Shown here piece after piece: positions 27,801-45,336 of a stretch of DNA of 48,520 nt. The translations under genes and the position numbers were made by a program. Positions within the stretch are counted from its first letter, which is position 1; each line of letters begins with the position of its first letter. Origin of the DNA: a virus (lineage: Duplodnaviria; Heunggongvirae; Uroviricota; Caudoviricetes). A model generated the notes under the pieces. It saw only the letters and a list, made by a program, of their open reading frames with translations. It was not told the DNA's origin and made no database searches. The stretch is taken from IMG/VR virus record IMGVR_UViG_2563366838_000005, one strand, 5' to 3'.

Positions 27801-27913
27801 TATTTATATAATTATAGATTTATATAAAAAGTGCTTTACGGGTGGGAAAAAATTTCCTAAGGTTATACCCGAAACCGAGCGATACCCGCCCTGGTTAAAC
27901 CGGAGATAACCCG
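27801..27913 (+). promoter_or_regulatory. Conserved promoter/leader block, copy 1
   Basis: Near-identical to 37201-37320 and 45221-45336: TATAATTATAGATTTATATAA motif, TTTAC(A/G)-17 nt-TAAGGT, conserved leader ending GGAG-N8-ATG. Confidence 0.55.
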
Positions 27914-28294
27914 ATGAGCATGATTAAAATCCGCAAAAACGCTTTCCTTAAAATTCAAACTATCCTGGCTGGTTCTGTCGGCGTGATTTGCCGTTCTTCT
28001 TCAAGCCGCATCGATGACGGCTACGATGATGAGTATCGTGTGTCCTCGTGCGATGAGGCTTTAACCTGGCTGAAGGAGAATCAGGAACGTGCCCAGGTAT
28101 ATCTGGAAACAGAGAACGGCAATCAGATGCTGCGTATTAGCGGTCGTTATGGATTTGAAACTACATTCATGGCCTATTTTAATCAGGCTTACTTTGACAA
28201 GGAGCTGGCCTGGTACACTGACCGCATGAGCAAAAGCGAGCCAGCCCCGATTACACCGCCGAACAATAAACCATTTTTATTCCTCGTTAAGTAA
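27914..28294 (+). CDS. Hypothetical protein (126 aa) driven by conserved promoter copy 1
   Basis: ORF starts exactly at the end of the conserved block. Confidence 0.5.
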   Translation: MSMIKIRKNAFLKIQTILAGSVGVICRSSSSRIDDGYDDEYRVSSCDEALTWLKENQERAQVYLETENGNQMLRISGRYGFETTFMAYFNQAYFDKELAWYTDRMSKSEPAPITPPNNKPFLFLVK

Positions 28295-28357
28295 ACACAA
28301 TGCGCAAAGTGTCATTTTGACACTTTGCGAGTGTTAATATTGTTCGAGGAGGATGCT

Positions 28358-28537
28358 ATGACGGGTTATGAATTGAAATTATGGCGTCGTGGGATGAATT
28401 GGACGCAGGAGCGAGCCGCTGAAGAGTTTGGGATATCGTTGGCTACATATAAGCGATATGAGAAGGGTGAGCCGCCGAGGGTCATTGAGATGGCCATTCG
28501 CGTTCTGTCGTTTGACGATATGGTTAAGGATCTTTAA
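28358..28537 (+). CDS. Small HTH protein (XRE-like)
   Basis: 59 aa from ATG 28358 with GAGGAGG SD; WTQERAAEEFGISLATYKRYE HTH. Confidence 0.55.
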   Translation: MTGYELKLWRRGMNWTQERAAEEFGISLATYKRYEKGEPPRVIEMAIRVLSFDDMVKDL

Positions 28538-28677
28538 CACCTTGATAAAGATGCGATTCTGTTAAGGCTGCAAACCCTTGTATGGGAAAAGGTTAAAGTG
28601 TCGTCAGAATTGGAACAAGGGATCAAATGATCCTTTACGGATCGTTTTATGGTGGTGTAATGTAAGCGCCAGAAAGA

Positions 28678-28704
28678 CAAAAACCGCCTTGCCGGGCGGT
28701 TTTC
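28678..28704. terminator. Hairpin terminator, A-run upstream and T-run downstream (possibly bidirectional)
   Basis: aaaaccgcc ttgccgg gcggtttt. Confidence 0.5.
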
Positions 28705-29265
28705 AGTCTGAAATTTAAATCTTGCTTGGTAGGCTGGATTTAAAAAGACACCTCTTGATTGGGGCGGCTTTCTTGCGTCTAAAGATAATCAAATCTTTTT
28801 GCGCCTGCAACCCCTTTTTTACTGGTGCCCATTTCAGACTCACGCTCGCGTCGTTGTCTTTGCCACTTCGTTGGGTTCGGTGTTTTTGGGCGAAGTGGCG
28901 CGCGGGTATGCGTACAAGGGGAAAGTGTGCTGACGCAAGCCAGGAACAGCGATCTAAACTAAGTCGAGTCTGAGAAAGGCAGGAGTGCGACAACTCGCCT
29001 GTGCTCTATGAGCAGAAGAAGGTATATCAGACGACCAATGGCATGATTGTGGGCCACAGGGCGCACACGGCGGCGAAGCATTGGAAACGATGTGGAGCTA
29101 TCTGGTGGCATGAGTTCCGGTACTCGATCTCGAGCTTTTTTTGATGCTTTTGAGAAGGGGCCGGAACTCCGGTAAAGGGCACCTTGTATGGGGGGAGGGG
29201 GGGTTGTGTCTTAAGGAAGATCTAATACGATATTGCTTTACCCTTATATCTAAAAGGAGATTTCT

Positions 29266-29901
29266 ATGGGGATGCTGGTGGCGTTTATTATTAGCCTGAT
29301 TTTGTGTTTCTTCGTAGTTCGTGGCGCATATCGGAAACAATGTGCCTCGTCTTCTGGTGGTAAGTTCAAAGCTGTTTTAGTGAGTGGCTTTCTCGGGATT
29401 GCAACTTTTGTAGTTGTTAATACTCTTGCGGCTGTGACCTTGATCCCAGAAGACTCTAACACTGCGGCTACTACCGGAGCTGCTTTTGATGGTGTGACCG
29501 TAGATAAGTTTAAGAAGTTATATAATGATGACCTTGAAGGCATCGCTACATCAGGAAAAACCACCTCCACTATAAGAATTAAGTCTGTTAAACAAGGTAA
29601 CAACACCGTTGAATTTGCCATCAACTCATCTGTTAACGGTCGGGCTAGAGTTGATAAGGATGGGAAGATTTCTGAGTTATTATGGCGAGTATCCAAGCCT
29701 AACTCTGATTCCTTGCTTTCTATGGCCGTAGCAGTTGAAGTCTTGGATGCGTCAAGTGAAAGAGACACCGTGATTGCGCAGTTAGAGCAGATTGTTAAAT
29801 CTGGTATGCAGAAAGCTGAGTTCAAGACTAAGAGAGGCGAGTATTACGTTTCTCGTGACAAATCAGGGCATGTATCGCTACTGATTACACCGAAATATTA
29901 A
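29266..29901 (+). CDS. Membrane-anchored hypothetical protein (211 aa)
   Basis: AGGAG SD; two N-terminal hydrophobic segments; stop followed by hairpin terminator. Confidence 0.6.
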   Translation: MGMLVAFIISLILCFFVVRGAYRKQCASSSGGKFKAVLVSGFLGIATFVVVNTLAAVTLIPEDSNTAATTGAAFDGVTVDKFKKLYNDDLEGIATSGKTTSTIRIKSVKQGNNTVEFAINSSVNGRARVDKDGKISELLWRVSKPNSDSLLSMAVAVEVLDASSERDTVIAQLEQIVKSGMQKAEFKTKRGEYYVSRDKSGHVSLLITPKY

Positions 29902-29910
29902 GAATTGAAG

Positions 29911-29937
29911 AAGCGCCCAAATCGGGCGCTTTGTTTT
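29911..29937. terminator. Terminator hairpin between convergent genes
   Basis: agcgccc aaat cgggcgct followed by ttgtttt; sits between convergent stops at 29901 and 29936. Confidence 0.6.
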
Positions 29938-31087
29938 ATGGTTTTGCACCTGCGGCCAGTTTATCCGCAGATATTTTTATCAGTTCCTGTAGTGTCTTGG
30001 CTGGCAGGTTTGCATCCAGAACGCTGAGTATGCTGTTGTGATCAGCTTGGTCGACTACTTTGCCTGTCGGTGGTAGTAGCTTGAGCTGAGGATTCAGGTT
30101 TTCGTCAAAGCTGATAAGTGCTCTGGCGTTTCTGAGCAGATCAAGAAGTAAGGCTGATATCACATTTTCCTGAGTCATTGCTGGCAGATTTAGCACCGCT
30201 TTGGTTTTCCCTGTTGCCTTGTCAAACTCCTTGATTAGTTCCTTCCTGTAGTTCGGTTCCGTTAATAGCCGATTATGCTCTGTTGCCGCGCGGATAATCG
30301 TTTTTTCCTGGTACAGTCGTTTAGCCAGATCGCGCTCGTACTGTGTTTTTAACACGCTGCTGATAGCGTTAAAGGCTTCAATGTAGGCCAGCTTGATATC
30401 CTTCACGCCTGGACCGTCGATACTTTCCATGAGCAAGGTAAATCCGTCTTTTGTCATGCGATAGATTGTTATTTCGCGGTCGCTTCCTTCCAACGGTCGT
30501 TGCTCTTTAAAGAAATGACGCGCCGCAGCTGTGCGAGGAATGCGTAACGCATCGATGGCCATAACGATGGAATTGTTTGTGGTGCTGAATGCTTGGGCAA
30601 CATCGGCTGAGGTTGTGAGTGGCTCGTTGTTGCACACCTTAACGTAATACATTGGTTTGGCGTTGAGCGTATCGACAACCTCACGAGCATTGTTTGGTGA
30701 GACGGTTACGGTCGCGGCCGTTTGCGCGTTCTGGCTGAAATAGCAGTCTTCCAGCCGTTCGAACACATCCCACGCCTGATCGGTTTCGAGCATTTTAGCG
30801 TGACGTGCAGCCCCGCGTTCTGTCCAGAGGATGAGAGAGCGAGTTTTGGGGGAAATTTGTACCTCATTTTGTGACTCGTTTAAAACTAGTCGCAAATTTT
30901 TGAGTTCATCACCAACAGCTTTAAAGAAGTGCTTCCCCTCAATGAACCGAGTTTTATTTTCATGGTGATTTTGCTGTATACGGATTGCTTCTGTTCCATA
31001 AAGGCGGGCGAGTAGCTCAGTTGTGATTACTGGAATCTGATTATGCAGGATAGGCTGTAGGGTGTTAACGGTCCGAAGCGTTTTCAT
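29936..31087 (-). CDS. Phage antirepressor / regulatory protein (ORF6N-like N-terminus, Rha-like C-terminus)
   Basis: 383 aa; domain layout recalled from antirepressor families; start overlaps upstream small ORF. Confidence 0.65.
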   Translation of the reverse strand: MKTLRTVNTLQPILHNQIPVITTELLARLYGTEAIRIQQNHHENKTRFIEGKHFFKAVGDELKNLRLVLNESQNEVQISPKTRSLILWTERGAARHAKMLETDQAWDVFERLEDCYFSQNAQTAATVTVSPNNAREVVDTLNAKPMYYVKVCNNEPLTTSADVAQAFSTTNNSIVMAIDALRIPRTAAARHFFKEQRPLEGSDREITIYRMTKDGFTLLMESIDGPGVKDIKLAYIEAFNAISSVLKTQYERDLAKRLYQEKTIIRAATEHNRLLTEPNYRKELIKEFDKATGKTKAVLNLPAMTQENVISALLLDLLRNARALISFDENLNPQLKLLPPTGKVVDQADHNSILSVLDANLPAKTLQELIKISADKLAAGAKP

Positions 31088-31371
31088 TTTGCACCTCCCA
31101 TAACTACTTTGGTTACGAGGGAGATTTTTGCGTCAGAAACAGCGTTATCGTTGCTGGCGATGCGCATAGCTTCGCGCTCGATGATTTCAGCCAGGCGGAA
31201 TTTATCGGCGTATGAGGCTTTCTTGAGAAGGATCTTTACGAGATTGACGTAATAGTCATGGGGTAAGTTTGTCATGATGATAGTTCCAGTTTTGATATTG
31301 GAATAATCACCACCGCTGACGCCAATCAGTGAGGTGGTGAGACGTACAGGGTTGGCGTAACCGGTCATCAT
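31084..31371 (-). CDS. Hypothetical protein translationally coupled to antirepressor
   Basis: 95 aa ORF whose stop overlaps the antirepressor start. Confidence 0.45.
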   Translation of the reverse strand: MMTGYANPVRLTTSLIGVSGGDYSNIKTGTIIMTNLPHDYYVNLVKILLKKASYADKFRLAEIIEREAMRIASNDNAVSDAKISLVTKVVMGGAK

Positions 31372-31441
31372 GATACCCGGCGAGCCTTACGGCTCCCCCG
31401 CACGCCCCACCATAATTCGGGTGTAGCTGTGCTTTACGCAT

Positions 31442-31462
31442 AAAAAAACCGCTAACGCGGTA
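31442..31462 (-). terminator. Candidate minus-strand terminator in antirepressor operon leader
   Basis: On minus strand: 5 bp stem accgc/gcggt, 4 nt loop, then T7. Confidence 0.35.
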
Positions 31463-31608
31463 TGCGCCATGATGATTATCGGGACGCCAATCCCGACCGT
31501 AGATTTTGCTACGGCTCGGAAAGTGTCCACCAATGGCGCATTCATGTCAATACGGCAGGATTTTAACAGAGACAACCACATAGCGTGGGTTTATTGGTAG
31601 GCAGAAAC

Positions 31609-31635
31609 AAAAAAACCGCCCTATTGAGGACGGTT
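31609..31635 (-). terminator. Candidate minus-strand terminator in ORF-poor region
   Basis: On minus strand: 8 bp stem with one G-U pair, 6 nt loop, then T7. Confidence 0.45.
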
Positions 31636-32032
31636 CTTTCGTGCTGATCGGATTCGCGGTCCTTTCAGCATTACGTTGTTGTATAAACAACCACGCAAGC
31701 ACAAGCAGCAAGTTAATTTTACCCAAAAGGTAATAATAGTCCACTATTATGCTTCAAAAAATTGTGGTTCTTGTTGTGCCTGCAAACTCACAGATTGTGG
31801 GTAGGTTACTGATTTTGTGAAAATAAACGAGTTTTTTCGTTTAATTTCTTTCCTATTACTAATCTTAAAATAATCGTAAAATACCTGTGGACCTTCCCGC
31901 CGATTCGCACCCGGGCACCGACTTTAGGGGAGGATTCTCCGTTGCCGTACATGCAAGCACAAGCAGCCGTGCTTGCTCTCGCGTTGTTTTCGTCGGTGGG
32001 GATGCCGTGAAACGGCCTGTAAGGGCCATACA

Positions 32033-32155
32033 ATGAAAAAATACTGTATGTGTATTTTTATCGTTGTTACTGGGGCTTTGTTTACGCCACATGGGGAGGG
32101 TTGGAAGATTACTGATAACGCTCTGAATGTGACGATAAACATTAGCAGCAAGTAG
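32033..32155 (+). CDS. Candidate small hydrophobic peptide (40 aa)
   Basis: ATG 32033; hydrophobic core CMCIFIVVTGALF; strong terminator 6 nt after the stop; weak SD. Confidence 0.3.
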   Translation: MKKYCMCIFIVVTGALFTPHGEGWKITDNALNVTINISSK

Positions 32156-32160
32156 CGATT

Positions 32161-32185
32161 AGGCCCCTTCGGGGGCCTTTTTTTA
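32161..32185 (+). terminator. Rho-independent terminator
   Basis: aggcccc ttcg ggggcct followed by T7. Confidence 0.7.
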
Positions 32186-32194
32186 TGGCTGAAT

Positions 32195-32377
32195 TTAAAC
32201 GCTGGAGCGCATTAAGCCTTTCAGAACTGCTTCACGTACCCATTCTGGCCTGGTGGATAGCAGGGCAAATAAGCAGCCAGCTTGCAGCCGTTTGAGGTCG
32301 GTTAGACGAGTTTTCAGTAACCGTGTATATTGTTGCTCGGACATAACAAATTCCCCTTGTTGTGTCGCGACGGCCAA
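32195..32377 (-). CDS. Hypothetical small protein downstream of par genes
   Basis: 60 aa ORF only. Confidence 0.3.
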   Translation of the reverse strand: MAVATQQGEFVMSEQQYTRLLKTRLTDLKRLQAGCLFALLSTRPEWVREAVLKGLMRSSV

Positions 32378-32406
32378 CAGTTGGCGCTGGAGGCCGTCAC
32401 CTTCTC

Positions 32407-32655
32407 TTACTTCTGGTTGTATTGAGCCTTGAGTAACTCAAAAGACTTTGTCAGCACTTCTTTCAATGACATATCCATTGAGCTGGCGAACGTTTTGTAC
32501 TCGCGTTTAAATTCAGGGTCGACGTTAAACGCCATTTGTGCCCCACCTGATTTGGTTCTGGTTGGCGTTTCAGTCGGGTCGAAAACCTGCGGTTGTTCGA
32601 TCGATGGCGGTACGCCTTTGCTGTTCTTCTTTGGTGGTTTTGATGGTGCGGCCAT
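32407..32655 (-). CDS. Partition protein, ParG-like ribbon-helix-helix
   Basis: 82 aa; C-terminal NVDPEFKREYKTFASSMDMSLKEVL resembles ParG RHH; immediately downstream of ParA. Confidence 0.65.
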   Translation of the reverse strand: MAAPSKPPKKNSKGVPPSIEQPQVFDPTETPTRTKSGGAQMAFNVDPEFKREYKTFASSMDMSLKEVLTKSFELLKAQYNQK

Positions 32656-32698
32656 GTGTATCCCCTCTTATATAAATCTATAAAACTATAATTATATA

Positions 32699-33367
32699 TT
32701 ATGCGGCAGTAGTCAGAGCCTCAAGCTGGTTGATAATCCCCTGAATAACGTCGTCTGCCTTTTTGCGTGGCGCAACGTATGAGCACTCAATGAGGCTTAA
32801 GCCCTTATCCTGAGCTTTGCTCAGAGCTGGCTTGTGGGGAATGTACTTATCGACAACAAAGTATGGCGTATTAGCCAGGTACTCTTGGGCTTCAATATAG
32901 TCAGCTTCGTTTTCAGCCGCGCCGGAAAACACCATGCAAATTTTCTTGATTGGTACACCCTTTTTAACGATGCCGTGAGCAGTGTTAACGGTGGTTTCCA
33001 GGTCATCGGTAGAGAATCGGGTTGGCAAAATAACCATATCCAGAAATTCAGATAGCTTCGGTACTGATTCAGATGCGTAGGCACCGCCATCGACGATAAC
33101 CAGGTCGTATACTTCTGATTCGATGATTTTCTGGACTTGTGATGGTGTGCCGCACGGCTGCGCCGCGATTGCTGGTTCGATATTGTTGGCCATTCTGCGT
33201 TGTACCCAACGCGTTACCGTTCCGTTAAGCACATCCATATCGATCAGGCATACATTCCAGCCAGCCTTTGCATAAGCAACTGCTAAAGCACGGGCAATTG
33301 TTGATTTGGTTACGCCGCCTTTTCCGTTGAAAATACCTACAGAGATAGTCATTTGTCGAGACTCCAT
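32699..33367 (-). CDS. parA: Partition ATPase ParA (type Ib)
   Basis: 222 aa; deviant Walker A GIFNGKGGVTKST; paired with a small RHH protein. Confidence 0.85.
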   Translation of the reverse strand: MESRQMTISVGIFNGKGGVTKSTIARALAVAYAKAGWNVCLIDMDVLNGTVTRWVQRRMANNIEPAIAAQPCGTPSQVQKIIESEVYDLVIVDGGAYASESVPKLSEFLDMVILPTRFSTDDLETTVNTAHGIVKKGVPIKKICMVFSGAAENEADYIEAQEYLANTPYFVVDKYIPHKPALSKAQDKGLSLIECSYVAPRKKADDVIQGIINQLEALTTAA

Positions 33368-33480
33368 GTGTTTGGTTATATAATTCTATAAATCTATATT
33401 TATAGAACGAGGTAAGCATAACCAACTTTTTGGCTGATGAAAAGCGTTTTATATAATTATATAAAACTATAATCATATAA
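33368..33480. promoter_or_regulatory. Candidate partition site / par operator with TATA-rich iterons
   Basis: Two clusters (about 33375-33405 and 33445-33478) of CTATAA/TTATAG-type ~8 bp repeats upstream of parA; a third between parG and parA (32663-32698). Confidence 0.45.
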
Positions 33481-33502
33481 GCGGGCGTTAGCCCGCTTGC
33501 AG

Positions 33503-33877: not shown

Positions 33878-33912
33878 GCGTAGCCTCTTTTATACTTTTA
33901 CATGTTGTCAAA

Positions 33913-33927: not shown

Positions 33928-33969
33928 TTTTTTGAGCGTAGAAATGCACGGCTTTCGCCGTGCTGTGTA

Positions 33970-34626: not shown

Positions 34627-34800
34627 GTCTCATCAATCGTGAATGGTGGGTTATTTATACATTACCACATTTAGTGGTTTTCACATGGTAAGACGAGAGG
34701 TGGACCACAAATAGAAGGTTATTTTTTGTTTTGCCCATTGAAAAACTCACGATATGTGGTTTTAATACCACATATCGTGGTTTTAACTGGAGTTCGTTAA
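34627..34800. promoter_or_regulatory. Immunity-region operator/promoter region between cI and cro-like genes
   Basis: ACCAC-N5-GTGGT at 34664-34678 and 34767-34781, the latter within a 13 bp perfect inverted repeat (34748-34760 / 34767-34779). Confidence 0.55.
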
Positions 34801-36773: not shown

Positions 36774-37151
36774 GTGAGACGCGATCTGGATAGCTTGTTT
36801 GAGCTATGGGCGCTGTGGGTGCGCAATGGCTGCAACGCCCGTAGCGGTTTCGCGTCGATGTTAGAAATGATGATGGTTACGCGCTGCCAGTTTACCGGAG
36901 GGGGCGGCGCACCAAATGACTCACTGGAAACCAGTATAGAGGGAGCGGTGACGGCCCTCACGGTAGTTGATGAGACTGCGGCGCTGGTTGTCCGAATTGA
37001 ATACGGGGCGTGGGAGATTCGGGGCCTCGACATAAATGCACCGCATATTGATAAAGCCCACGCCCTTTCTCTTAGCCTCAGACAGTATCGCCGGAAGCTG
37101 GCAAAAGCCAGGGCGTATGTTGTCGACTATTTGAAAAAGCGAAGAGAGTAA
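36774..37151 (+). CDS. Possible antitermination protein Q-like regulator
   Basis: 125 aa; weak resemblance (ELWALWVRNG, basic C-terminus) to small Q proteins; lies just upstream of conserved promoter copy 2. Confidence 0.3.
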   Translation: MRRDLDSLFELWALWVRNGCNARSGFASMLEMMMVTRCQFTGGGGAPNDSLETSIEGAVTALTVVDETAALVVRIEYGAWEIRGLDINAPHIDKAHALSLSLRQYRRKLAKARAYVVDYLKKRRE

Positions 37152-37200
37152 AAGTGTCATTTTGAGCTGTTTTGATGGTGTGTAGACATCGGGAACATCG

Positions 37201-37320
37201 AAAATCTATAAATATATAATTATAGATTTATATAAAAAGTGCTTTACAGGTGGGAAAAAATTTCCTAAGGTTATACCCGAAACCGAGCGATACCCGCCCT
37301 GGTTAAACCGGAGAAATCTG
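37201..37320 (+). promoter_or_regulatory. Conserved promoter/leader block, copy 2
   Basis: Near-identical to copies 1 and 3; upstream AAATCTATAA-N8-TTATAGATTT inverted repeat. Confidence 0.55.
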
Positions 37321-38388
37321 ATGAATAAACAAGTAATTATTTCTGACTGGATCAACAACCCTAACAGCCTGTTAAGCACTGATACTGGCTACCTATTACG
37401 CCATGTTAATGGTCGTATGGTCAAAAGCGATGAGCACGAAACCTTTTTCTTTGTTGAAGATGATGGGCGTATCTATGAGGATGGTTACTCTTATGAAGCC
37501 CAAACTGGTTGTATCCCTGCGGAGCTGGTGGACGTAACAGAAGATCTGCGCAAAGCATGGCTTGAACAGCAGCAGCGCGGAGATGATTACGTAAACACCT
37601 ATCAGGAACGCCAGAACGCGCGTCTTGCCCGATATATTGCTCGTGCAGAAAAAGCCAGAAAAGAAGGTGCGGTAGCGCATAAGCGAGCGCATGACCTGTT
37701 GGATGTGATCCCGTTAGGCCAGCCGATTTTAGTTGACCATTATAGCGCGAAAGGCCATCGCCGCCGTTTGTCTAAAGCTGATGCGTTATTAAGAAAAGCG
37801 TTTGTTGAATGCGAAAGTAAAGCATCACACTACGAGAGCAAAGCCGCAGGTGTTGGTCGTAATGGAATTTCGTCTGATGATCCTGATGCGCTATTTAAGT
37901 TGCTTCGTAAGCTGCAAGGCTGCATGAAGTCACACGTCAAAATGAAGGCCGCAAATAAGGCCATTCGCAAATACAAAAAAGACCAATTACAGCAGCTTTC
38001 TGCATTAATCGATCTCAGGTTTACAGAAAGCGAAGCCAAAGAGTTACTGGCCGGAGATTTCTGTGGGCACATCGGATTCCCTTCATACGCACTGAGCAAC
38101 AATAACGCCGAGATCAAACGACTACAGAGCCGTATTAAGGAGCTTGAATCGGTCAAGTCTGTAACAGGAGCACAGCGCGAAGAATACGACGACTTTTCTA
38201 TGGAGATAGATCCAGAGGATAACCGCATCCTGTTTTATTTCCCTGGCAAACCAGAGGCAAACATTCGTTCGCTGCTTAAATCACGTGCCTTTAAGTGGAG
38301 TCCAACCCGTAATGCATGGGTTCGCAAGATTACTCCAAATGCCCTGGCTGATGCCCGATATCTGAAAGAATCGCTATTGAAAGCCTGA
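37321..38388 (+). CDS. DUF3560-like hypothetical protein (355 aa)
   Basis: GQPILVDHYSAKGHRRR motif recalled as typical of DUF3560; starts exactly after conserved block. Confidence 0.5.
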   Translation: MNKQVIISDWINNPNSLLSTDTGYLLRHVNGRMVKSDEHETFFFVEDDGRIYEDGYSYEAQTGCIPAELVDVTEDLRKAWLEQQQRGDDYVNTYQERQNARLARYIARAEKARKEGAVAHKRAHDLLDVIPLGQPILVDHYSAKGHRRRLSKADALLRKAFVECESKASHYESKAAGVGRNGISSDDPDALFKLLRKLQGCMKSHVKMKAANKAIRKYKKDQLQQLSALIDLRFTESEAKELLAGDFCGHIGFPSYALSNNNAEIKRLQSRIKELESVKSVTGAQREEYDDFSMEIDPEDNRILFYFPGKPEANIRSLLKSRAFKWSPTRNAWVRKITPNALADARYLKESLLKA

Positions 38389-38399
38389 CAGTAAGCCTA

Positions 38400-38419
38400 C
38401 GGCGGGATGTCTCCCGCCG
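38400..38419 (+). terminator. Hairpin terminator followed by AT-rich iteron-like motif
   Basis: cggcggga tgtc tcccgccg, 8 bp stem. Confidence 0.45.
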
Positions 38420-38444
38420 TATATAGAATTATATATTTATATAA

Positions 38445-38747
38445 ATGTATAAGGACGCCTCGACAATGAAACGCAAAATTATTAACCCCCAAGATGTGAT
38501 TAATTTCCTGACCGATCACCCATGTTCAAAAGTGGACGTAATCGCGGAGCACATTGGTGTGTCGCAGAACTCTATGCGTTGCAGACTGAGAAGCATGGTT
38601 GCCGAAGGACAGATAACAACCAGGAAAATAAATGGTTGCCTGTACTACTCCGCTAAACCGGAATTGCCATTTGGCATGAATCCTAACTCCATGTTGTTTA
38701 ACACCTTATTAGCCAAAGTTAAGCCGTTGAGAGGGGCTGTGGCATGA
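38445..38747 (+). CDS. Hypothetical protein, possible winged-helix DNA-binding (alternative start 38466)
   Basis: 100 aa ORF; segment VDVIAEHIGVSQNSMRCRLRSMVAEGQI resembles a wHTH. Confidence 0.4.
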   Translation: MYKDASTMKRKIINPQDVINFLTDHPCSKVDVIAEHIGVSQNSMRCRLRSMVAEGQITTRKINGCLYYSAKPELPFGMNPNSMLFNTLLAKVKPLRGAVA

Positions 38748-39109: not shown

Positions 39110-39813
39110 GCAAGATGAAAGAGCGCGGCATGATTTTTAATGATGCGATGGTCAGGGCCATCCTCGAAGGCAGGAAGACGCAGACTCGCCGACCTGTAAA
39201 AAATGTCAGGGCCGATAACTGCCTGGTTATCCGTAAACCGACAAAGAAACGCAATGGTGTCTATACCCACGTTATGGATGCACCTGAACATGGTTTATGT
39301 CCGTTCGGTAACGTTGGTGATCGCATATGGGTCCGTGAAGCGTGGGCGATATTAGGCAATGAGGATGGTTGCAGTGTGGACTGGAACGACAACCTTTGTC
39401 GTGGCGATGAGAAGAACGCAGCAAGGATTTATCGGGCCAGTTGCGAGCAAAAGCCTGGTGATTACGGCCTGTGGTCGATACCCGATGATGCCGACTGGAA
39501 ACCTCACACTGTGAATGAAAAGTTTGATGGCGGGTGGTGTCCATCAATTCACATGCCGCGCTGGGCTTCGCGTATTTTGCTGGAAATTACCGACGTGCGT
39601 GTGGAACGGCTGCATGACATGAGCGAGGCAGATGCTAAAGCGGAAGGCGCATCTCCGGCGACGTACAAGATTACACCGCCGGAAGCTGTTTATCGCGTTG
39701 GCTTTGGTGATATCTGGCGCGGTATTTACGGGCAAGAGAACTGGCTATCTAACCCGTGGGTATGGGTAATTGAGTTTAAGCGTATTCAGGAGGCAACCAG
39801 TGAGCGAAATTAA
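39106..39813 (+). CDS. Conserved phage hypothetical protein
   Basis: GTG 39106 after GGAGG SD (or ATG 39112); N-terminal MIFNDAMVRAILEGRKTQTRR motif. Confidence 0.45.
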   Translation: MSKMKERGMIFNDAMVRAILEGRKTQTRRPVKNVRADNCLVIRKPTKKRNGVYTHVMDAPEHGLCPFGNVGDRIWVREAWAILGNEDGCSVDWNDNLCRGDEKNAARIYRASCEQKPGDYGLWSIPDDADWKPHTVNEKFDGGWCPSIHMPRWASRILLEITDVRVERLHDMSEADAKAEGASPATYKITPPEAVYRVGFGDIWRGIYGQENWLSNPWVWVIEFKRIQEATSERN

Positions 39814-40396
39814 TTACCAGGCACTGCGTGAGGCAGCAGAAGCAATAAAAGTCGTGGCAACGCCGCAAAAATTGCTCGCGTTTCGTATGAAGGTCACACC
39901 GCAGGTTGTGCTGGCGCTACTGGATGAAATTAAGCGGCTGGAGGACACAAATATCGATGCTATGTGCCGAATTGCGGAGTATGAGACTAATCTCGCTGCG
40001 CTGGTGGTGGAGAACGACGGACTGAAACACGCAATGGCCGTAACTCTTGAGCATGTGTCGGTCACGGATGCAGGGCAGGCTGGTGTTGCTGCAATGATTA
40101 TCAATGATGCCCTACACCACAGCGAAACTCCAGCTACCGATGCTTTTCTGGCTGAAATTCGTGCGGAAGCACGCAACGAGGGGATTAACTATACCGCCAG
40201 CCGTCTTGCTGCTGCGTTCAATCACGGATTTATCAATAAGTCTTTGCGTGAAGTTTTCGACGTTACGCGCATGATTCTGTCAGCGAAAGAAGAGTTGGCT
40301 AATGAACCGTACCCGATTGATGGCCTGTCCGGTGAATATGCGGAGAAATCCCTTGAAGAATGGGCGGAACAGATTCGCAAAGGAGTTCAGTTATGA
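39800..40396 (+). CDS. Ea22-like protein, paralog 1
   Basis: GTG 39800 after AGGAGG; N-terminal INYQALREAAEA..VVLALLDEIKRLE shared with 40623..41285. Confidence 0.55.
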   Translation: MSEINYQALREAAEAIKVVATPQKLLAFRMKVTPQVVLALLDEIKRLEDTNIDAMCRIAEYETNLAALVVENDGLKHAMAVTLEHVSVTDAGQAGVAAMIINDALHHSETPATDAFLAEIRAEARNEGINYTASRLAAAFNHGFINKSLREVFDVTRMILSAKEELANEPYPIDGLSGEYAEKSLEEWAEQIRKGVQL

Positions 40397-40626
40397 GCAT
40401 CCGAACTGAACATGGATTTGGTCCTTCAACAGTCGAAGTCGAATGGCTTGATGATTGCCCTAAGTGCCAGCACGGCAAAGCCAAGGTAACAGGATGGTCG
40501 GTAACCAAAGATTCTTTGTGGGCGGGTGATGAGGCTGTCTGTTCCAAATGCGGTCACAAAGGTGAAATCGATGCTGATGGAGAGAATGCCTGGGTGGAAT
40601 GGGACGAAATCGAGGAGGCACAATGA
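40393..40626 (+). CDS. Small zinc-ribbon protein
   Basis: 77 aa with CPKC...CSKC pair. Confidence 0.5.
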   Translation: MSIRTEHGFGPSTVEVEWLDDCPKCQHGKAKVTGWSVTKDSLWAGDEAVCSKCGHKGEIDADGENAWVEWDEIEEAQ

Positions 40627-41285
40627 GCAAAATTGACTATCAGGCACTGCGTGATGCGGCAGAAAAGGCAACACAGGGTGAATGGGTCGCATTTATTTCG
40701 CCGGGCAAATACGGCACGTACGCCGTACACACACCAGGTGATAATCATCACGGAGATATTGTCGACTGGCCAGGATTCGACGAACAGAAAAACGCAGAGA
40801 ACAACGCTCGTTATATCGCAGCTTTCAACCCTGAAGTAGTGCAGGCATTACTGGATGAACGGGAAAGAAACCAGCAATACATCAAATCACGCGACCAGGA
40901 GAACGAGGAAATTGCGCTAACGGTAGGGAAGCTGCGTGTTGAGCTGGAAGCCGCAGAGAAGCGCAACGCAAAATTACAAAGCGAGAATGCATACATCCGC
41001 AACCGGTACAAAGAACTGGACCTGTTAATCGGGAAAAACATTCTGGTCATGCAGGCTGCGATTATCGAATGGCAGGCAACTGGCGACGCTAAGAGCGGAC
41101 TGGCATGGATTTATAACACACTGTTTGGCCCAGGCGAATTGCCGGACGAATCTGAGAAAGATGCTCAGGCCTACTTTAATCGCAAATATGCACCGATTGA
41201 CGAAAAGCTTATGGAGCTTCACAAGTGGTTTTGGGAACAAAGTAAAGCCGAGCGCGCCGCTGGCATTGGCGTGAAGGGGGAATGA
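40623..41285 (+). CDS. Ea22-like protein, paralog 2
   Basis: ATG 40623 after GAGGAGG; N-terminal IDYQALRDAAEKA..VVQALLDERERN. Confidence 0.55.
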   Translation: MSKIDYQALRDAAEKATQGEWVAFISPGKYGTYAVHTPGDNHHGDIVDWPGFDEQKNAENNARYIAAFNPEVVQALLDERERNQQYIKSRDQENEEIALTVGKLRVELEAAEKRNAKLQSENAYIRNRYKELDLLIGKNILVMQAAIIEWQATGDAKSGLAWIYNTLFGPGELPDESEKDAQAYFNRKYAPIDEKLMELHKWFWEQSKAERAAGIGVKGE

Positions 41286-41641
41286 GTATGGCTTTTGTAT
41301 CAATCATAACTGGTGGCAGAGGTCGCAAGCGTGACACGGCAGGAATATCCGTTAGATATTCAAAATCAGGATCTGTGCAGTGCTATATCGGAGTTGATGT
41401 CAGATCGAACAGTCGATTTATTTTCGTTGAGTTGGATGAGGAAAACAGGCAGATCAGGGTGATGCCAACCTCGGATGAAAAGGGTGCAAAGATGTCTGGT
41501 GCAAGCAGAGGGACATTCTCAGTAACTAAAAAGTTTGGGGATGTGGTTATACCTTCAGGACATAAAAAAGCTTTCATCGAGCTGGAAAAAAATGCTGATG
41601 GTTGGTGGTACGGTAAATATCAAGAAGGGGATACGGCATGA
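41282..41641 (+). CDS. Hypothetical protein
   Basis: 119 aa ORF. Confidence 0.4.
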   Translation: MSMAFVSIITGGRGRKRDTAGISVRYSKSGSVQCYIGVDVRSNSRFIFVELDEENRQIRVMPTSDEKGAKMSGASRGTFSVTKKFGDVVIPSGHKKAFIELEKNADGWWYGKYQEGDTA

Positions 41642-42012
41642 TCACTATTACCAAAGAGCGACTGCTGACAATCAAGCAGTGGCGCGAAACATACGGACCT
41701 GATAGCAACGTTGTACTGCCAGCAGAAGAAGCGGAAGAACTGGCACGAATTGCACTTGCATCGCTGGAAGCAGAACCGGTGGCGTGGATGCGTGATGACG
41801 CAGATGGTCGTGAGTATAACGCTCGCAATGAATTTTCTGGTGGAGGGGGAGGAGTTCCACTCTACGCCACCCCTCCAGTGCCAGTAGTACCGGAAGAAAA
41901 ACCAATGCCTAATCCTCTTAGCATGTACGCGGTTGATGCTGTTGCCGCTATTGCAGAGGTGAGAGGCTGGAATGCCTGCCGCGCGGCTATGCTTCATGGG
42001 AAAGGAAAGTGA
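41638..42012 (+). CDS. Hypothetical protein, paralogous to 42014..42289
   Basis: Shared N-terminal TKE(R/Q)L..I...RE and (E/A)PVAW motifs. Confidence 0.4.
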   Translation: MITITKERLLTIKQWRETYGPDSNVVLPAEEAEELARIALASLEAEPVAWMRDDADGREYNARNEFSGGGGGVPLYATPPVPVVPEEKPMPNPLSMYAVDAVAAIAEVRGWNACRAAMLHGKGK

Positions 42013-42013
42013 T

Positions 42014-42289
42014 ATGGCTACTTTTACCAAAGAGCAATTGATTGCCCATATTCGTGAACGTAAGGAAGCGCGCCAGAGAATGTTGGATACGGTAACTATT
42101 AACCCCGGATTTCGTGAATATCTTGAAAGAGAGCTTGCTACAGATGAAATTGCACTGGCATCCCTGGCATCTGCACCTGTTGCATGGCTAGTTGGAGGGC
42201 GTTTGTTCACAACTGAGATAGCTGCGGGGATGTACGCTAGTGAGGTGAGGAAAGCAGTTAAGCCGCTATTCTTTTCTGCACTACTGTGA
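42014..42289 (+). CDS. Hypothetical protein, paralog of 41638..42012
   Basis: ATG 42014 after AGGAAAG; shared motifs with preceding gene. Confidence 0.4.
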   Translation: MATFTKEQLIAHIRERKEARQRMLDTVTINPGFREYLERELATDEIALASLASAPVAWLVGGRLFTTEIAAGMYASEVRKAVKPLFFSALL

Positions 42290-42434
42290 GTATTGTTTTT
42301 TTATTGATCGATCAACCACATTTTGAAGGTTTTTTTATGAAGAAACCTTGTTTTAGGTGGTAACTGGGTGTAGTGTTTCATTTAACGTAGTAAAACTGCG
42401 TTAAGCGATTACCGCGTAATTTGTTGCTTTATGA

Positions 42435-42465
42435 AGCCCTGCCTTTTCGGCGGGGCTTTTTTTTA
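42435..42465 (+). terminator. Rho-independent terminator immediately upstream of holin gene
   Basis: 9 bp stem agccctgcc/ggcggggct with one G-U pair, loop ttttc, then T8. Confidence 0.55.
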
Positions 42466-42477
42466 ACGAGGATTTCA

Positions 42478-42873
42478 ATGTCAGCAGAACCAATTTCCGG
42501 TACGGCCGTTGCTGCTGGTGGCCTGATGGGTGCCAGCGTTTTTGGTATTGCAACTGGTATTGATTACGGCGTTGTATTCGGGGCATTTGCTGGCGCTGTT
42601 TTCTATGTTGCTACAGCGGTGAATATTAGCCGTCTCAAGCTGATTGGCTATTTCTTTACATCGTTCATTGTTGGAGTGATTGGAGCGCCGTTAGTTGGCT
42701 CATTTCTTGCCAAATGGACCAGCTACAACGATCGTCCTCTGGATGCGCTTGGTGCGGTTATTGTGGCTGCATTGACCATTAAAATCCTCACGTTCGTAAA
42801 CAGCCAGGATCTCGGTAGCATCTTTGGAATGCTTTCCCGCTTACGTGGAGGGGGTTCAAATGGTAAGCAGTGA
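42478..42873 (+). CDS. Putative holin (multi-TM membrane protein)
   Basis: 131 aa from ATG 42478 with GAGGA SD; several hydrophobic helices; first gene of lysis cassette. Confidence 0.55.
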   Translation: MSAEPISGTAVAAGGLMGASVFGIATGIDYGVVFGAFAGAVFYVATAVNISRLKLIGYFFTSFIVGVIGAPLVGSFLAKWTSYNDRPLDALGAVIVAALTIKILTFVNSQDLGSIFGMLSRLRGGGSNGKQ

Positions 42874-43156
42874 CCCGTCAGCACTGATTAATGCGGTGCT
42901 TTGCACAGTAATAGTAATGGCGCTGATGCTTTATCGACGGAAAGACTCCAGGCATCGTCCATTTGTTTCCTTTCTGGCTTATATCTACGTCATTGTATAC
43001 GCCAATGTTCCCTTCCGTTATGTGTTCGGTCTTTATCAAGAATCCCACTGGCTGGTGGTTATTGGAAATCTGATTATCTGCATCGTTGTTCTGTATTTCA
43101 GGGGCAATCTGGCGCGGATAGTTGACGCATTAGGGTTTAATCATGACCAAAGATGA
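42860..43156 (+). CDS. Lysis-associated membrane protein (second holin or antiholin candidate)
   Basis: 98 aa from ATG 42860; three hydrophobic segments; overlaps endolysin start. Confidence 0.45.
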   Translation: MVSSDPSALINAVLCTVIVMALMLYRRKDSRHRPFVSFLAYIYVIVYANVPFRYVFGLYQESHWLVVIGNLIICIVVLYFRGNLARIVDALGFNHDQR

Positions 43157-43685
43157 GATTTTTAACAGCATTCTTGGAAAAGAGGGCGGCTATGTGGATC
43201 ACCCTGACGACAAGGGAGGCCCAACAAAGTGGGGCATTACTCAGAATACTGCCCGTGCTCACGGATACCGTGGCGATATGCGAGATCTGACGCGAGAACA
43301 GGCTCTGATGATTCTTGAAGGTGATTATTGGTATGGGCCTCGTTTTGACCAGGTGGCGCAATTTTCCCCTGATATTGCGGCTGAGATGTGCGATACGGGC
43401 GTCAACATGGGGCCGACTGTGGCTACGAAGATGCTTCAACGTTGGCTGAATGTTTTCAACCGTGGCGGGAAGTTGTATCCAGATATGGATGTGGATGGGC
43501 GAATCGGCCCGCGCACCATTGCGGCATTACGTGCTTATCTTGGGAATCGGGGAAAAGACGGCGAACGGGTAATGCTGACGGCCCTGAACTGTACGCAGGG
43601 CGACCGTTATCTGGACCTGGCGGAGAAACGCGAAGCAAATGAGTCGTTTGTCTATGGCTGGATGAAAGAGCGAGTGGTGGTATGA
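43143..43685 (+). CDS. Endolysin, GH108-like N-terminal domain with peptidoglycan-binding C-terminal domain
   Basis: 180 aa; N-terminal EGGYVDHPDDKGGPTKWGIT motif characteristic of GH108 lysozymes. Confidence 0.75.
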   Translation: MTKDEIFNSILGKEGGYVDHPDDKGGPTKWGITQNTARAHGYRGDMRDLTREQALMILEGDYWYGPRFDQVAQFSPDIAAEMCDTGVNMGPTVATKMLQRWLNVFNRGGKLYPDMDVDGRIGPRTIAALRAYLGNRGKDGERVMLTALNCTQGDRYLDLAEKREANESFVYGWMKERVVV

Positions 43686-43960
43686 CTGGTTTGAAAGCCG
43701 TTTTGTCATTTATCGGCACCGTTATATTGGTTGCATTCGGTGCGTTTGGTTTTGGTCGTATGAAGGGGCGAGAAAAGGCCGAAGATGAAGCTGAAAAGCA
43801 GCGCATTAATGAGAATGCAGCCGCCGTAAAAGCCACTGCGGAGCGGCGTATAGAAGTGACAAAAGAGGTGGGCAATGTACAGCAGAGTGTTAACCATATG
43901 GCTGATGACGATGTTGATCGCGAGCTGCGGGAGTCGTGGAAGCGTCCCGGTGGTGGTTGA
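43682..43960 (+). CDS. i-spanin (Rz-like)
   Basis: 92 aa; N-terminal TM helix, charged coiled region; start overlaps endolysin stop. Confidence 0.6.
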   Translation: MTGLKAVLSFIGTVILVAFGAFGFGRMKGREKAEDEAEKQRINENAAAVKATAERRIEVTKEVGNVQQSVNHMADDDVDRELRESWKRPGGG

Positions 43961-44084
43961 TACCGCCTGTGATTGGGTAAAGCCCATCTACCTGACTGAT
44001 CACGATATCGATGTTATGGACCGCCAGACAAAGAAAGATATTCTGGCTCATAACAGGGCATGGGAAATCAACTGCCCCAAGTAA
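43875..44084 (+). CDS. o-spanin (Rz1-like lipoprotein)
   Basis: 69 aa; lipobox LIASC; starts in an alternate frame inside the i-spanin gene. Confidence 0.6.
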   Translation: MYSRVLTIWLMTMLIASCGSRGSVPVVVDTACDWVKPIYLTDHDIDVMDRQTKKDILAHNRAWEINCPK

Positions 44085-44253
44085 TATATATTTCTATAAT
44101 TATATAAATATATAGTTACAACATTCTATGCGCTTTTCTCATGGGCGCACGCATCAACCATGTTTGTCTGATATGCCGCCGCGCCCAAAAATCCTGAATT
44201 TATTGGCTGGGATTTTCGTGCGCGGCGCCACACCAGACAAACAGATCAAATAT

Positions 44254-44329
44254 GGCCCCTTAGCTCAGTGGTTAGAGCAGGCGACTCATAATCGCACGGT
44301 CATCGGTTCAAATCCGGTAGGGGCCACCA
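44254..44329 (+). tRNA. tRNA with CAU anticodon, most like tRNA-Ile2 (lysidine type); could be scored as tRNA-Met
   Basis: 76 nt cloverleaf with 7 bp acceptor stem, D-arm GCTC/GAGC, anticodon loop CTCATAA, T-loop TTCAAAT, encoded CCA; resembles E. coli ileX as recalled. Confidence 0.8.
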
Positions 44330-44637
44330 ATTCACTCTCACACATAAAGATAAGCGCGGTGGAGTTACTTCCTTCGTGCTCATCTTTATGCGTGCCTGGT
44401 GCGCATTTCGGGCGAACGTGGGGCTAAGTTACAGGCAGGGCCTGTTATCCGCAAAGGGGTAAAAGCTGGAGCGGCACGGAACTGTAGCCGTGTTACCAAA
44501 ACAGCGTTGTCGGGCGATATCCGGCACACAACAGGCAAGGGCATTAATCAGTCTGGTTAGTGCCCTTTTCGTTGCGTCTGCTGTAGAGCTGGCCAGCGTT
44601 ATGACTGCCGGAGATAAGCGCCGGAGGCACAACTAAC

Positions 44638-45225
44638 ATGGAGGCAATTGCATTGTTTAATCTGATTTATGCAGATCCCCCCTGGGAATACAAAGATAAG
44701 TGTAAGGATGGGAATCGTGGAGCTGGTTTTAAGTATCCAACGATGAAAGCTGAGGATATTGCTCGTATTCCTGTCTGGCAGCTTGCTAATCCTGAATCGT
44801 GTTTGTTGGCCATGTGGTGGGTTCCGACTCAGCCAGAAGAAGCGTTGCTGGTGGTGAAAGCATGGGGATTCAGGCTTATGACCATGAAGGGCTTCACATG
44901 GAACAAATGTGGTAGCCGACAACCAGATAAGCTGGTGATGGGGATGGGGCATATGACTCGTGCAAACAGTGAAGATTGCTTGTTTGCGGTAAAAGGCAAA
45001 TTGCCGACCCGCCTTGATGCGGGGATCATTCAGTCGTTTACATCGCCTCGTCTGGAGCATTCTCGGAAGCCTGATGTGGTTCGTGACAAGCTGGTAAGGC
45101 TGTTAGGTGATGTTCCTCGTATTGAGCTGTTTGCTCGCGGTGATTTACCTGATGGTTGGCATGGCTGGGGCAACCAGTGCAATGGAAGTATCCAGTTGCA
45201 TGATGCTCTCTGGCAAGTGGTATAG
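44638..45225 (+). CDS. DNA adenine methyltransferase, MT-A70-like
   Basis: 195 aa; IYADPPWEY catalytic motif near N-terminus. Confidence 0.7.
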   Translation: MEAIALFNLIYADPPWEYKDKCKDGNRGAGFKYPTMKAEDIARIPVWQLANPESCLLAMWWVPTQPEEALLVVKAWGFRLMTMKGFTWNKCGSRQPDKLVMGMGHMTRANSEDCLFAVKGKLPTRLDAGIIQSFTSPRLEHSRKPDVVRDKLVRLLGDVPRIELFARGDLPDGWHGWGNQCNGSIQLHDALWQVV

Positions 45226-45336
45226 AATTATATAATTATAGATTTATATAAAAGTGCTTTACAGGTGGGAAAAAATTTCCTATGGTTATACCCGAAACCG
45301 AGCGATACCCGCCCTGGTTAAACCGGAGATAACCCG
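45221..45336 (+). promoter_or_regulatory. Conserved promoter/leader block, copy 3
   Basis: Near-identical to copies 1 and 2 (TTTACA-17 nt-TATGGT variant), ends at ATG 45337. Confidence 0.55.

Follow-up and report, generated by a model that had tools for sequence, protein, structure and literature searches.

Three promoter-leader blocks of a myovirus-type phage-plasmid and their homology to the KorC-regulated klcA and kleA promoters of IncP-1 plasmids

It has been reported that KorC of RP4 regulates klcA, kleA, and kleC, and that a KorC site located between the -35 and -10 elements of a korC promoter suggests autoregulation (PMC12365149). In new transconjugants, expression of klcA rises about 224-fold and that of the kle genes 22-50-fold (PMC7314908), and the promoter regions of klcA, kleA, and kleC have been described as "propagated as preformed units" (PMC2680271). 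Similarly, promoters of RA3 are co-repressed by KorC and KorB (PMC9455977). The present analysis concerns three near-identical promoter-leader blocks in IMG/VR record IMGVR_UViG_2563366838_000005, a stretch of 48,520 nucleotides (nt) that is called the window throughout. These blocks are probably copies of a portable kil-kor-type cassette of promoter and leader, which is homologous to the klcA/kleA promoters of IncP-1 plasmids, would be repressed by a KorC homologue and co-regulated by a partition protein, and would drive units expressed on entry into the cell. What is new is the presence of the KorC-operator promoter class in a phage-plasmid, with repeat arrays of the ribbon-helix-helix (RHH) type replacing the KorA/KorB operators.

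Blocks, KorC homologue and leader

The three blocks lie where the initial annotation put them; the MAFFT alignment of 27761-27960, 37170-37369, and 45186-45385 is near-perfect from the AT-rich motif to the ATG, while the flanks are unrelated on either side. A repeat search returned a 102-nt three-copy family at 27805/37213/45228, and the copies are 95.5-97.3% identical in pairs over 113 columns, a similarity that cannot be due to chance. As originally read, they are promoter-plus-leader units, each joined to the first codon of an unrelated gene. The features of each copy, with the Shine-Dalgarno (SD) sequence and the gene that follows, whose product is given in amino acids (aa), are as below.

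27797-27913, + strand: block copy 1, with array 27797-27828, -35 TTTACG 27835-27840, palindrome 27843-27859, -10 TAAGGT 27858-27863, hairpin 27873-27896, and SD GGAG 27902-27905; drives the 126-aa gene 27914-28294
37205-37320, + strand: block copy 2, with array 37205-37236, -35 TTTACA 37243-37248, palindrome 37251-37267, -10 TAAGGT 37266-37271, hairpin 37281-37304, and SD 37310-37313; drives the DUF3560 gene 37321-38388
45221-45336, + strand: block copy 3, with array 45221-45252, -35 TTTACA 45258-45263, palindrome 45266-45282, -10 TATGGT 45281-45286, hairpin 45296-45319, and SD 45325-45328; drives the 89-aa gene 45337-45606 and the 66-aa gene 45603-45803

Four modules follow one another in each block. 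Module (a) comprises four repeats of 8 base pairs (bp) with the consensus TATA(T/G)A(A/T)(T/A), and is separated from the -35 by six bases. In module (b), which begins two bases after the -35, a 17-bp palindrome, TGGGAAAAAATTTCCTA (TGGGAAA-AAA-TTTCCTA), fills the 17-nt spacer, and its final TA forms the first two bases of the -10. Module (c), nine bases after the -10, is the hairpin AACC-GA-GCG-ATACC-CGC-CCT-GGTT, and module (d) consists of AAACCGGAGA, which contains the SD sequence ACCGGAG, followed by 7-8 nt and the ATG. The -35/-10 core with its 17-nt spacer therefore stands as first described, although the palindrome within that spacer was absent from the description. The upstream motif is likewise present, but it is no single motif, being the 3′ part of the four-repeat TATAnAAT array of module (a), which is found at five more sites.

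The window is circular, as positions 1-95 equal 48426-48520 exactly (a 95-nt terminal overlap) and the opening falls inside a ParB-domain gene. It is a myovirus-type phage-plasmid of ~48.4 kb, with an IncFII-type RepA, a small ParA, a cI-like repressor of the helix-turn-helix (HTH)/S24 type, a toxin-antitoxin pair, and a contractile-tail myovirus virion module, in whose 930-aa tape-measure gene a 42-nt repeat occurs in three copies with 120-bp spacing and 67-71% identity (15432-15713). The par region is more than 95% identical in ~60 plasmids of E. coli, Salmonella, and Klebsiella (47-52 kb), and the Yersinia phages vB_YpM_39, 41, and 44 are ~97% identical. The block was found in 74 of 5,426 complete E. 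coli genomes, ATCC 25922 among them; the median copy number in these genomes is three, and plasmids account for 214 of the 217 places. A viral contig scan for the block-type pattern returned just the same E. coli/Salmonella clade; the pattern GGAA-N6-TCCTA-N25-50-AACCGGAG, used to scan genome contigs, was too loose, nearly all its matches being due to chance. The pSLy3 phage-plasmid group was rejected as the home of the element, pSLy3 being a member of the SSU5 supercommunity.

The relatives compared were an E. coli plasmid (L001), Salmonella pAR-0407-1 (L002), Serratia pJSRIV006_2 (L003), and the partial contigs L182, L184, and L185, of which 18-19 kb was sampled for L182 and L185. L182 and L185 are metagenomic and have the backbone RepA-ParA-cI-early operon-Q-like gene in common with the element. 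In the Salmonella relative, the block occurs at the same three syntenic sites and is ~88% identical, and in the Serratia relative, three far more diverged copies were found together with a korC-promoter site. Between lineages, the functional elements of the block are kept while loop and linker vary.

The IncP operator geometry was taken directly from the sequence of R772, in which the regions upstream of klcA and kleA hold the same cassette: AAAGTGCTTGAC-(2-3 nt)-TAGGGCATTTTGCCCTA-ATAT-(10 nt)-GGCCGGGC...GCCCAGGTC-AACTACCGGAGAAAGTCCG-ATGA. An alignment of eleven sequences has 34 invariant columns, spread across promoter and leader. When the R772 kleA promoter-leader was used as the query, 316 plasmid records were found, the matches lying mostly upstream of kleA or klcA/antirestriction genes. 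All elements of the cassette are common to eight diverse examples, namely klcAp and kleAp of R772 and the regions upstream of klcA in Xylella, Xanthomonas, Acidovorax, Photobacterium, pMCR3, and Citrobacter plasmids; judged by eye and by alignment, these elements are the -35, the TAGG-N9-CCTA palindrome ending in the -10, the hairpin, and ACCGGAGAA..CCGATGA. A covariance model trained on eight conjugative-plasmid klcA/kleA promoter-leaders alone provided a non-circular membership test. In the window, it matched exactly the three blocks, at full length (copy 1, 44.2 bits, E 1.9e-7; copy 2, 46.5 bits, E 6.2e-8; copy 3, 48 bits, E 2.9e-8), and the next match was the korC promoter at 12 bits, which is not significant. 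Three copies each were found in L001, L002, and L003 and one in L184, while neither the block nor korC nor the palindrome was found in the sampled regions of L182 and L185. By sequence, the blocks are thus members of the class of KorC-operator promoters described for the IncP-1 kil-kor regulon.

KorA and KorB operators were not found near the blocks, and elsewhere in the window they matched at chance level. With R772 KorA as the tblastn query, no significant match was obtained in the window; KorB was not used as a query. The best KorA match (28% over 93 aa, E 0.13, not significant) covers 29578-29835, the C-terminal part of a 211-aa protein (29266-29901) encoded downstream of copy 1. A ParB/Srx-domain gene (47211-47834) is preceded, at a distance of 5 nt, by TTTAGCGGATAAA (47194-47206), a sequence one base off the consensus of the IncP KorB operator, TTTAGCSGCTAAA; this may be coincidence, as ~1.5 matches are expected by chance at two or fewer mismatches.

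A candidate repressor for the palindromes is encoded behind a promoter of the same geometry that lies outside the span of the initial annotation.

25808-25836, + strand: fourth promoter, TTGCCA - CA - TAGGAAAAGATTTCCTA - TACCAT, without array and without hairpin leader
25863-26150, + strand: KorC homologue, 95 aa, candidate repressor for the palindromes
26147-26437, + strand: conserved 96-aa protein, function unassigned, co-transcribed with korC

The 95-aa protein is 51% identical over 80 aa to the annotated KorC of the IncP-1beta plasmid R772 (BLASTP, E 4e-23), and in tblastn it matches KorC-annotated proteins on IncP-1 and many other plasmids, 3,928 PLSDB records in all. The fourth promoter has the -35/palindrome/-10 geometry of the blocks, with the perfect palindrome TAGGAAAAGATTTCCTA at 25816-25832, which is the one further occurrence of TAGGAA-N5-TTCCTA in the window beyond the blocks; this arrangement recurs in the Serratia relative (L003 16268-16295). 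It is presumed from its sequence to be an autoregulated korC promoter. Repression of the blocks by the KorC homologue is inferred because of homology, phyletic co-occurrence, and operator position. A shared regulatory input, as first suggested, is supported in the form of a dedicated repressor site in the promoter spacer. The likeliest regulator, with the same palindrome in its own promoter, is this KorC homologue and none of the three candidates originally named, of which the 94-aa HTH protein (27362-27646) was rejected as the shared regulator, being absent from the Salmonella relative that has all three blocks.

Two side observations concern these proteins. Against the PDB, the KorC homologue is similar to the C-terminal region of AcrIF24 (E 1.4e-5) and to Aca3 (E 0.016), a similarity that connects plasmid Kor repressors with anti-CRISPR-associated repressors. 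The 96-aa protein is conserved at ~44% identity throughout the relatives, even in the two that lack korC, and its gene stands after repA in every case.

The leader had been described as holding three ACCCG repeats and possibly an RNA structure. The repeats are not kept in the Salmonella and Serratia relatives and were dropped as a leader feature, but the hairpin and ACCGGAG...CCGATGA are kept, and a conserved structure is supported. RNAfold gave the same stem-loop in every lineage, with z-scores of only -1.3 to -2.4. In an alignment of 16 sequences, the eight-pair helix is 91% paired, against 10-45% for slid controls, and compensatory double changes occur at three helix pairs (A-U/G-C, G-C/A-U, and C-G/U-A), together with several further single compatible changes, while the loop sequence is variable. 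The single-stranded ACCGGAG..CCGATGA is invariant or nearly so over all plasmids, and a second hairpin involving the SD is weak and without covariation. Within the blocks, Rfam gave no family at the gathering score and only chance-level matches (E above 3), and the leader hairpin is flagged here as a conserved structure that Rfam does not contain. The start of the hairpin is constant, 8-10 nt past the -10, and would thus lie at 1-3 nt from the 5′ end expected for the mRNA. The transcript would begin 1-3 nt ahead of the hairpin, and a short single-stranded SD, ACCGGAG, would come next, 8 nt from the ATG. Stem-loops at the 5′ end, such as that of ompA, can stabilize the mRNA, and by analogy the leader hairpin is most likely a 5′-terminal mRNA stabilizer within a strong translation-initiation module.

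The similarity of the copies seems to have a second source. Eight positions differ between E. coli and Salmonella while all three copies agree inside each genome, and block identity is 93.8-98.2% within a genome versus 86-90% between the E. coli and Salmonella genomes. Some of the eight fixed differences lie at loop and linker positions without evident function, which, together with the within- versus between-genome identities, points to homogenization of the copies by gene conversion or recombination, besides selection by shared regulators. Copies in one genome would be kept identical by such concerted evolution, probably by gene conversion.

TATAnAAT arrays, partition proteins and proposed mechanism

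The arrays are found at eight places, namely in the three blocks and at five other sites, each oriented with the downstream gene. The pattern TATA-N4 x4 has 15 matches in the window versus 0.01 expected, and the Salmonella relative has arrays at the same syntenic sites. The five other arrays and the partition proteins are listed below.

32667-32698, - strand: array B, with four TATAnAAT repeats, located after the parA stop and before the parG-like start
33375-33406 and 33448-33479, - strand: arrays C2 and C1, upstream of parA, candidate centromere/operator
38422-38453, + strand: array E, after hairpin 38396-38419, directly upstream of a 93-aa gene (ATG 38466)
44085-44116, + strand: array F, ~140 nt upstream of the tRNA gene 44254-44326
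32699-33367, - strand: ParA, small Walker-type, 222 aa (Pfam CbiA 1.7e-12, also ParA and MipZ)
32407-32655, - strand: ParG-like protein, 82 aa, with a disordered basic N-terminal tail and a C-terminal RHH domain, centromere-binding candidate

The tRNA gene near array F (+ strand, 67 bits) sits within the mechanically called open reading frame 44128-44427.

ParA is without an N-terminal DNA-binding domain, as in type Ib partition. In the AlphaFold2 (AF2) model of the ParG-like protein, residues 1-40 have a predicted local distance difference test (pLDDT) score of 61-70, and an extended segment is followed by helices 46-58 and 63-79; pLDDT exceeds 90 in these helices and over roughly residues 41-80. 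The top PDB matches of this model in Foldseek are RHH proteins, with ParG 1P94 at rank 5. Its family comprises ~55 clusters of proteins of 74-90 aa, and of 47 members, 16 weakly match Pfam RHH_10 and 10 match Antitox_RHH. On these predictions, the 82-aa protein is ParG-like by architecture only.

The arrays keep their 8-bp register across lineages, and their consensus shifts along with the presumptive DNA-reading beta-strand of the ParG-like protein, as follows.

E. coli: beta-strand QMAFNV, array TATAKAWT
Serratia: beta-strand PMNFNM, array of the TAAATAWT type
L182: beta-strand PLNFNV, array of the TAAATAWT type
L184: beta-strand QLLFRL, array GATATAAA/TATATCTT
L185: beta-strand PLHFSV, array like the Serratia type (imperfect fit)

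Relatives without korC or blocks still have arrays, with ParA and the ParG-like protein, so the arrays appear to be a separate module tied to these two proteins. The ParG-like protein, one of the regulators originally named, is a plausible binder of the upstream TATAnAAT arrays but not of the promoter core, and by analogy it is reasonable, if more tentative than the KorC assignment, to regard the partition adaptor as a co-repressor acting through these candidate sites.

The mechanism that may be proposed starts from a sigma-70 promoter with a 17-bp palindromic operator in the -35/-10 spacer, overlapping the first two bases of the -10. The KorC homologue would bind this palindrome as a dimer, excluding RNA polymerase, and would also repress its own promoter. 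When the DNA enters a cell that is without KorC, the three promoters would fire and would then shut as KorC builds up, a predicted burst that can be likened to the "zygotic induction" of the klcA and kle genes of RP4. More tentatively, the ParG-like adaptor would bind the arrays as both centromere binder and global co-repressor, in the manner of KorB in RK2 or of omega in pSM19035. The three short hairpin-bounded units, that is, the 126-aa gene, the DUF3560 gene, and the pair of 89-aa and 66-aa genes, would fit accessory "establishment" cargo.

A bolder version of this proposal is offered as a conjecture that is possible but doubtful. It holds that the kil-kor circuit may have been rebuilt with a ParG-type RHH adaptor acting on eight centromere-like arrays as genome-wide co-repressor with KorC, so that one protein would run both segregation and the silencing of "entry-burst" genes. 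It further holds that the hairpin and the ACCGGAG..CCGAUGA leader may form an undescribed cis-acting RNA module common to the KorC regulons of conjugative plasmids and phages, perhaps as a target of post-transcriptional control rather than only a stabilizer.

Driven units and alternative explanations

The driven genes are mutually unrelated and vary by lineage, none being in common with the Serratia relative, and they are without homology to klcA, klcB, kleA, and kleE. Each unit ends in a hairpin or palindrome, and a weakly Q-like gene lies just upstream of copy 2.

28303-28329: end of the copy-1 unit, perfect palindrome/hairpin with a 12-bp stem, GCGCAAAGTGTCA-TTT-TGACACTTTGCG, directly after the 126-aa gene
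38396-38419, + strand: end of the copy-2 unit, GC-rich hairpin without U-tract, read from sequence, directly after the DUF3560 gene
45825-45848, + strand: end of the copy-3 unit, terminator-like hairpin with a 10-bp stem and T-run, after the 89/66-aa genes
36774-37151, + strand: "Q-like" protein, 125 aa, weakly Q21- or sigma-region-4-like

The palindrome at 28303-28329 lies before an Xre-type HTH gene (ATG ~28358) and could be either a terminator or the operator of that HTH protein.

Several points weigh against the proposal of a KorC-repressed, partition-co-regulated cassette. All steps of the mechanism are inferred from homology and from the published behavior of IncP-1 and RA3, and the three contigs L182, L184, and L185 are partial. 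The -10 elements TAAGGT/TATGGT are weaker than the IncP TAATAT; in a simple sigma-70 consensus scan, copy 3 and the fourth promoter reach 9/12 and copies 1 and 2 only 8/12. Searches in PADLOC, Pfam, PHROGs, and NCBIfam gave the driven genes no recognized function beyond DUF3560 and PHROGs families of unknown function, and an establishment or anti-defence role of the cargo is a guess. The ParG-like protein taken alone has no Pfam match, Pfam ParG included, and its profile matches PDB ParG 1P94 only at E 0.77. Covariation between arrays and beta-strand is imperfect, as L185 has a different strand (PLHFSV) and yet Serratia-like arrays. The arrays, being very AT-rich and full of -10-like hexamers, could be upstream (UP) elements, H-NS sites, or promoter clusters, and the Q-like gene has an array behind it in every lineage, with or without korC, which makes a link between the arrays and the Q-like protein possible.

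One alternative explanation is that the arrays are not partition sites at all, but generic AT-rich promoter architecture (UP elements or -10-like clusters), H-NS nucleation sites, or targets of the Q-like or a sigma-like protein. This seems unlikely, although the arrays are almost pure A/T, contain TATAAT, and stand directly upstream of the -35 in the blocks or of start codons in the case of arrays B and E. The RHH proteins ParG, omega, and MetJ bind tandem short repeats, and arrays of four units in a strict 8-bp register are consistent with such binding and not with the helical phasing of curved or UP DNA. Moreover, three of the eight arrays are found around parA and parG, where a type Ib centromere/operator is usually located; the ParG-like beta-strand and the repeat consensus change together from lineage to lineage; and the arrays persist with ParA and the ParG-like protein where korC and the blocks are missing.

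A second explanation takes the blocks as Q-dependent late promoters like lambda PR′, at which the 125-aa protein would load on RNA polymerase and allow read-through of the hairpins into lysis and morphogenesis genes; the initial annotation had raised both Q loading and a late-promoter role for copy 3. The Q-like gene ends 60 nt before the array of copy 2, a hairpin or terminator follows each unit, the initial transcribed region is conserved, and the AF2 model of the protein (mean pLDDT 77) has Q21 structures as its best Foldseek matches (probability 0.8-0.94, template modeling score ~0.5). These matches have E values of ~0.3, however, with sigma region 4 domains close behind, and the protein has no Pfam family and only a weak NCBIfam match to PA0613_fam. 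The cassette with its leader is also carried by conjugative plasmids whose sampled regions show no Q-like gene, and in the sampled regions of L182 and L185, the relatives without korC, the Q-like gene is kept but no block lies downstream of it. The occurrence of the cassette on conjugative plasmids, together with its absence where the Q-like gene is present without korC, makes a defining role for the Q-like protein at the blocks unlikely, while an accessory role at copy 2 is possible. In addition, the spacer element is a perfect dyad, as expected of a dimeric HTH repressor, although it was not compared with known Q-binding elements; no -10-like pause element is conserved after the start site across lineages; and copy 1 is directed away from the late genes. 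Copy 3 is unlikely as a late promoter as it stands, with a strong terminator-like hairpin ~490 nt downstream (45825-45848) and a second hairpin at 46524-46545, and by sequence it would reach the packaging genes only with antitermination. As a whole, the Q-dependent explanation is quite improbable.

Three ParB/Srx N-terminal-domain genes stand ahead of the terminase genes (47211-47834, 48-782, and 2076-2666), two of them partly matching PADLOC MTase_II, and an MT-A70 methyltransferase gene (44638-45225) lies just upstream of copy 3; these genes could form a DNA-modification or anti-restriction set.

A third explanation, for which there is little room, assigns the palindrome to another HTH protein, whether the Xre-type protein (~28358-28537), the 94-aa protein, or the cI-like repressor, and regards the KorC homology as coincidental. 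Several small HTH proteins are indeed encoded nearby, and the Xre-type gene lies downstream of copy 1, so autoregulation could be envisaged. Against this, the Xre-type protein has no homologue in Serratia pJSRIV006_2, where the palindromes persist, the 94-aa gene is missing from the Salmonella relative as described above, and cI was rejected as the binder because the palindromes of the cI-cro region are of a different type (ACCACAT...ATGTGGT). TAGG-N9-CCTA is, moreover, found at the same promoter position in korC-carrying plasmids and in the korC promoter. As to the cI region itself, the intergenic stretch between cI and the early operon (34640-34790) contains a number of palindromes of the ACCACAT...ATGTGGT type, among them a dyad with a 14-bp stem at 34747-34780, and these are presumably cI operators. 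Matches at the Rfam gathering level were found for the C4 antisense RNA (31330-31417, - strand), isrK (31442-31515, - strand), and ryfA (31887-32183, + strand), adjoining an Ash-family open reading frame and an ORF6N/Rha antirepressor; by analogy, these stretches together with 29936-31371 (- strand) look like an RNA-controlled antirepressor operon of the P1/P7 immI type.

The idea that a recent triplication or a small mobile insertion left the blocks behind as inert remnants, without regulatory function, as their very high identity and the occurrence of the cassette in many unrelated replicons might suggest, can practically be dismissed: the spacing between the end of the block and a start codon is fixed in every copy, the three syntenic sites are shared with Salmonella and recognizable in Serratia with functional elements kept, no terminal inverted repeats or target duplications were found at the blocks, the block (86-90% between E. 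coli and Salmonella at the nucleotide level) seems better conserved than the driven proteins (45-68%), a nucleotide-versus-protein comparison that is indicative only, and the widespread cassette, which the initial annotation had foreseen as a possible inert remnant, is elsewhere a characterized regulated promoter and no remnant, the homologous IncP-1 promoters being experimentally regulated (PMC7314908, PMC12365149).

Comparison with known systems

If the proposal of a KorC-controlled cassette is correct, a cassette described in 1988 for broad-host-range conjugative plasmids would also work in phage-plasmids of E. coli, Salmonella, Yersinia, and Serratia, which would be a concrete case of the exchange of regulatory modules between plasmids and phages. 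KorC would then be the probable master switch of unannotated genes expected to be expressed first on entry, and the genes under its control would be natural candidates for establishment or anti-defence functions. The partition adaptor would in turn provide a testable case of a global regulator acting at dispersed sites in a phage.

Aca-controlled anti-CRISPR promoters follow the logic of a strong promoter with a dyad operator that is shut after an entry burst. The likeness to these systems lies in the similarity of the KorC homologue to the C-terminal region of AcrIF24 and to Aca3, whereas the operator and leader here are of the KorC class and the cargo shows no sign of anti-CRISPR or anti-defence proteins. 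In the linear phage-plasmid N15, sopC partition sites are dispersed through phage regions near promoters. The present element is likewise a phage-plasmid with scattered candidate sites for a partition protein, while N15 relies on SopAB, a type Ia system whose sites are palindromic, and is not known to have a KorC cassette.

As for partition, omega of pSM19035 binds 7-bp heptads and ParG of TP228 binds 4+4 bp units, and such short tandem repeats serve as both centromere and operator. Like these two, the ParG-like protein is small, is predicted to be of the RHH type with a flexible N-terminal tail, and is encoded after a small ParA; it is a candidate for centromere binding. The omega repeats lie at several promoters of the plasmid, and here there are eight dispersed arrays, three of which are fused to a KorC-type promoter. 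The differences are that the protein here has no Pfam ParG membership, that the repeat is TATAnAAT, and that binding is only proposed.

The KorC regulons of other plasmids are closer still. Multiple promoters of the IncU plasmid RA3 are controlled by KorC jointly with the partition protein KorB, and in the IncL plasmid pOXA-48, where a single predicted site is reported, the korC operator is situated between -35 and -10 and has been proposed to serve autoregulation; both were likened to the present element by their descriptions and not by operator or promoter sequence.

The closest system is that of IncP-1 klcA/kleA. It differs in being carried by a conjugative plasmid and not by a myovirus-type phage-plasmid, in having KorA and KorB operators upstream of the -35 where four 8-bp TATAnAAT repeats stand here, and in using IncC/KorB partition and not type Ib partition with a small ParA and an RHH protein; in addition, the genes driven here are unrelated to klc/kle, and the -10 is weaker. 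The two systems have in common a homologous KorC repressor, with 51% identity to that of R772, and the sequence homology of the -35, the 17-bp TAGG-N9-CCTA spacer operator, the -10, the leader hairpin, and the SD-ATG context. Both have multiple near-identical copies per replicon, three here, that drive unrelated short operons (PMC2680271), both have the operator in the repressor's own promoter, and in both a site for a partition-related protein, here the candidate site formed by the TATAnAAT array, stands just upstream of the -35.

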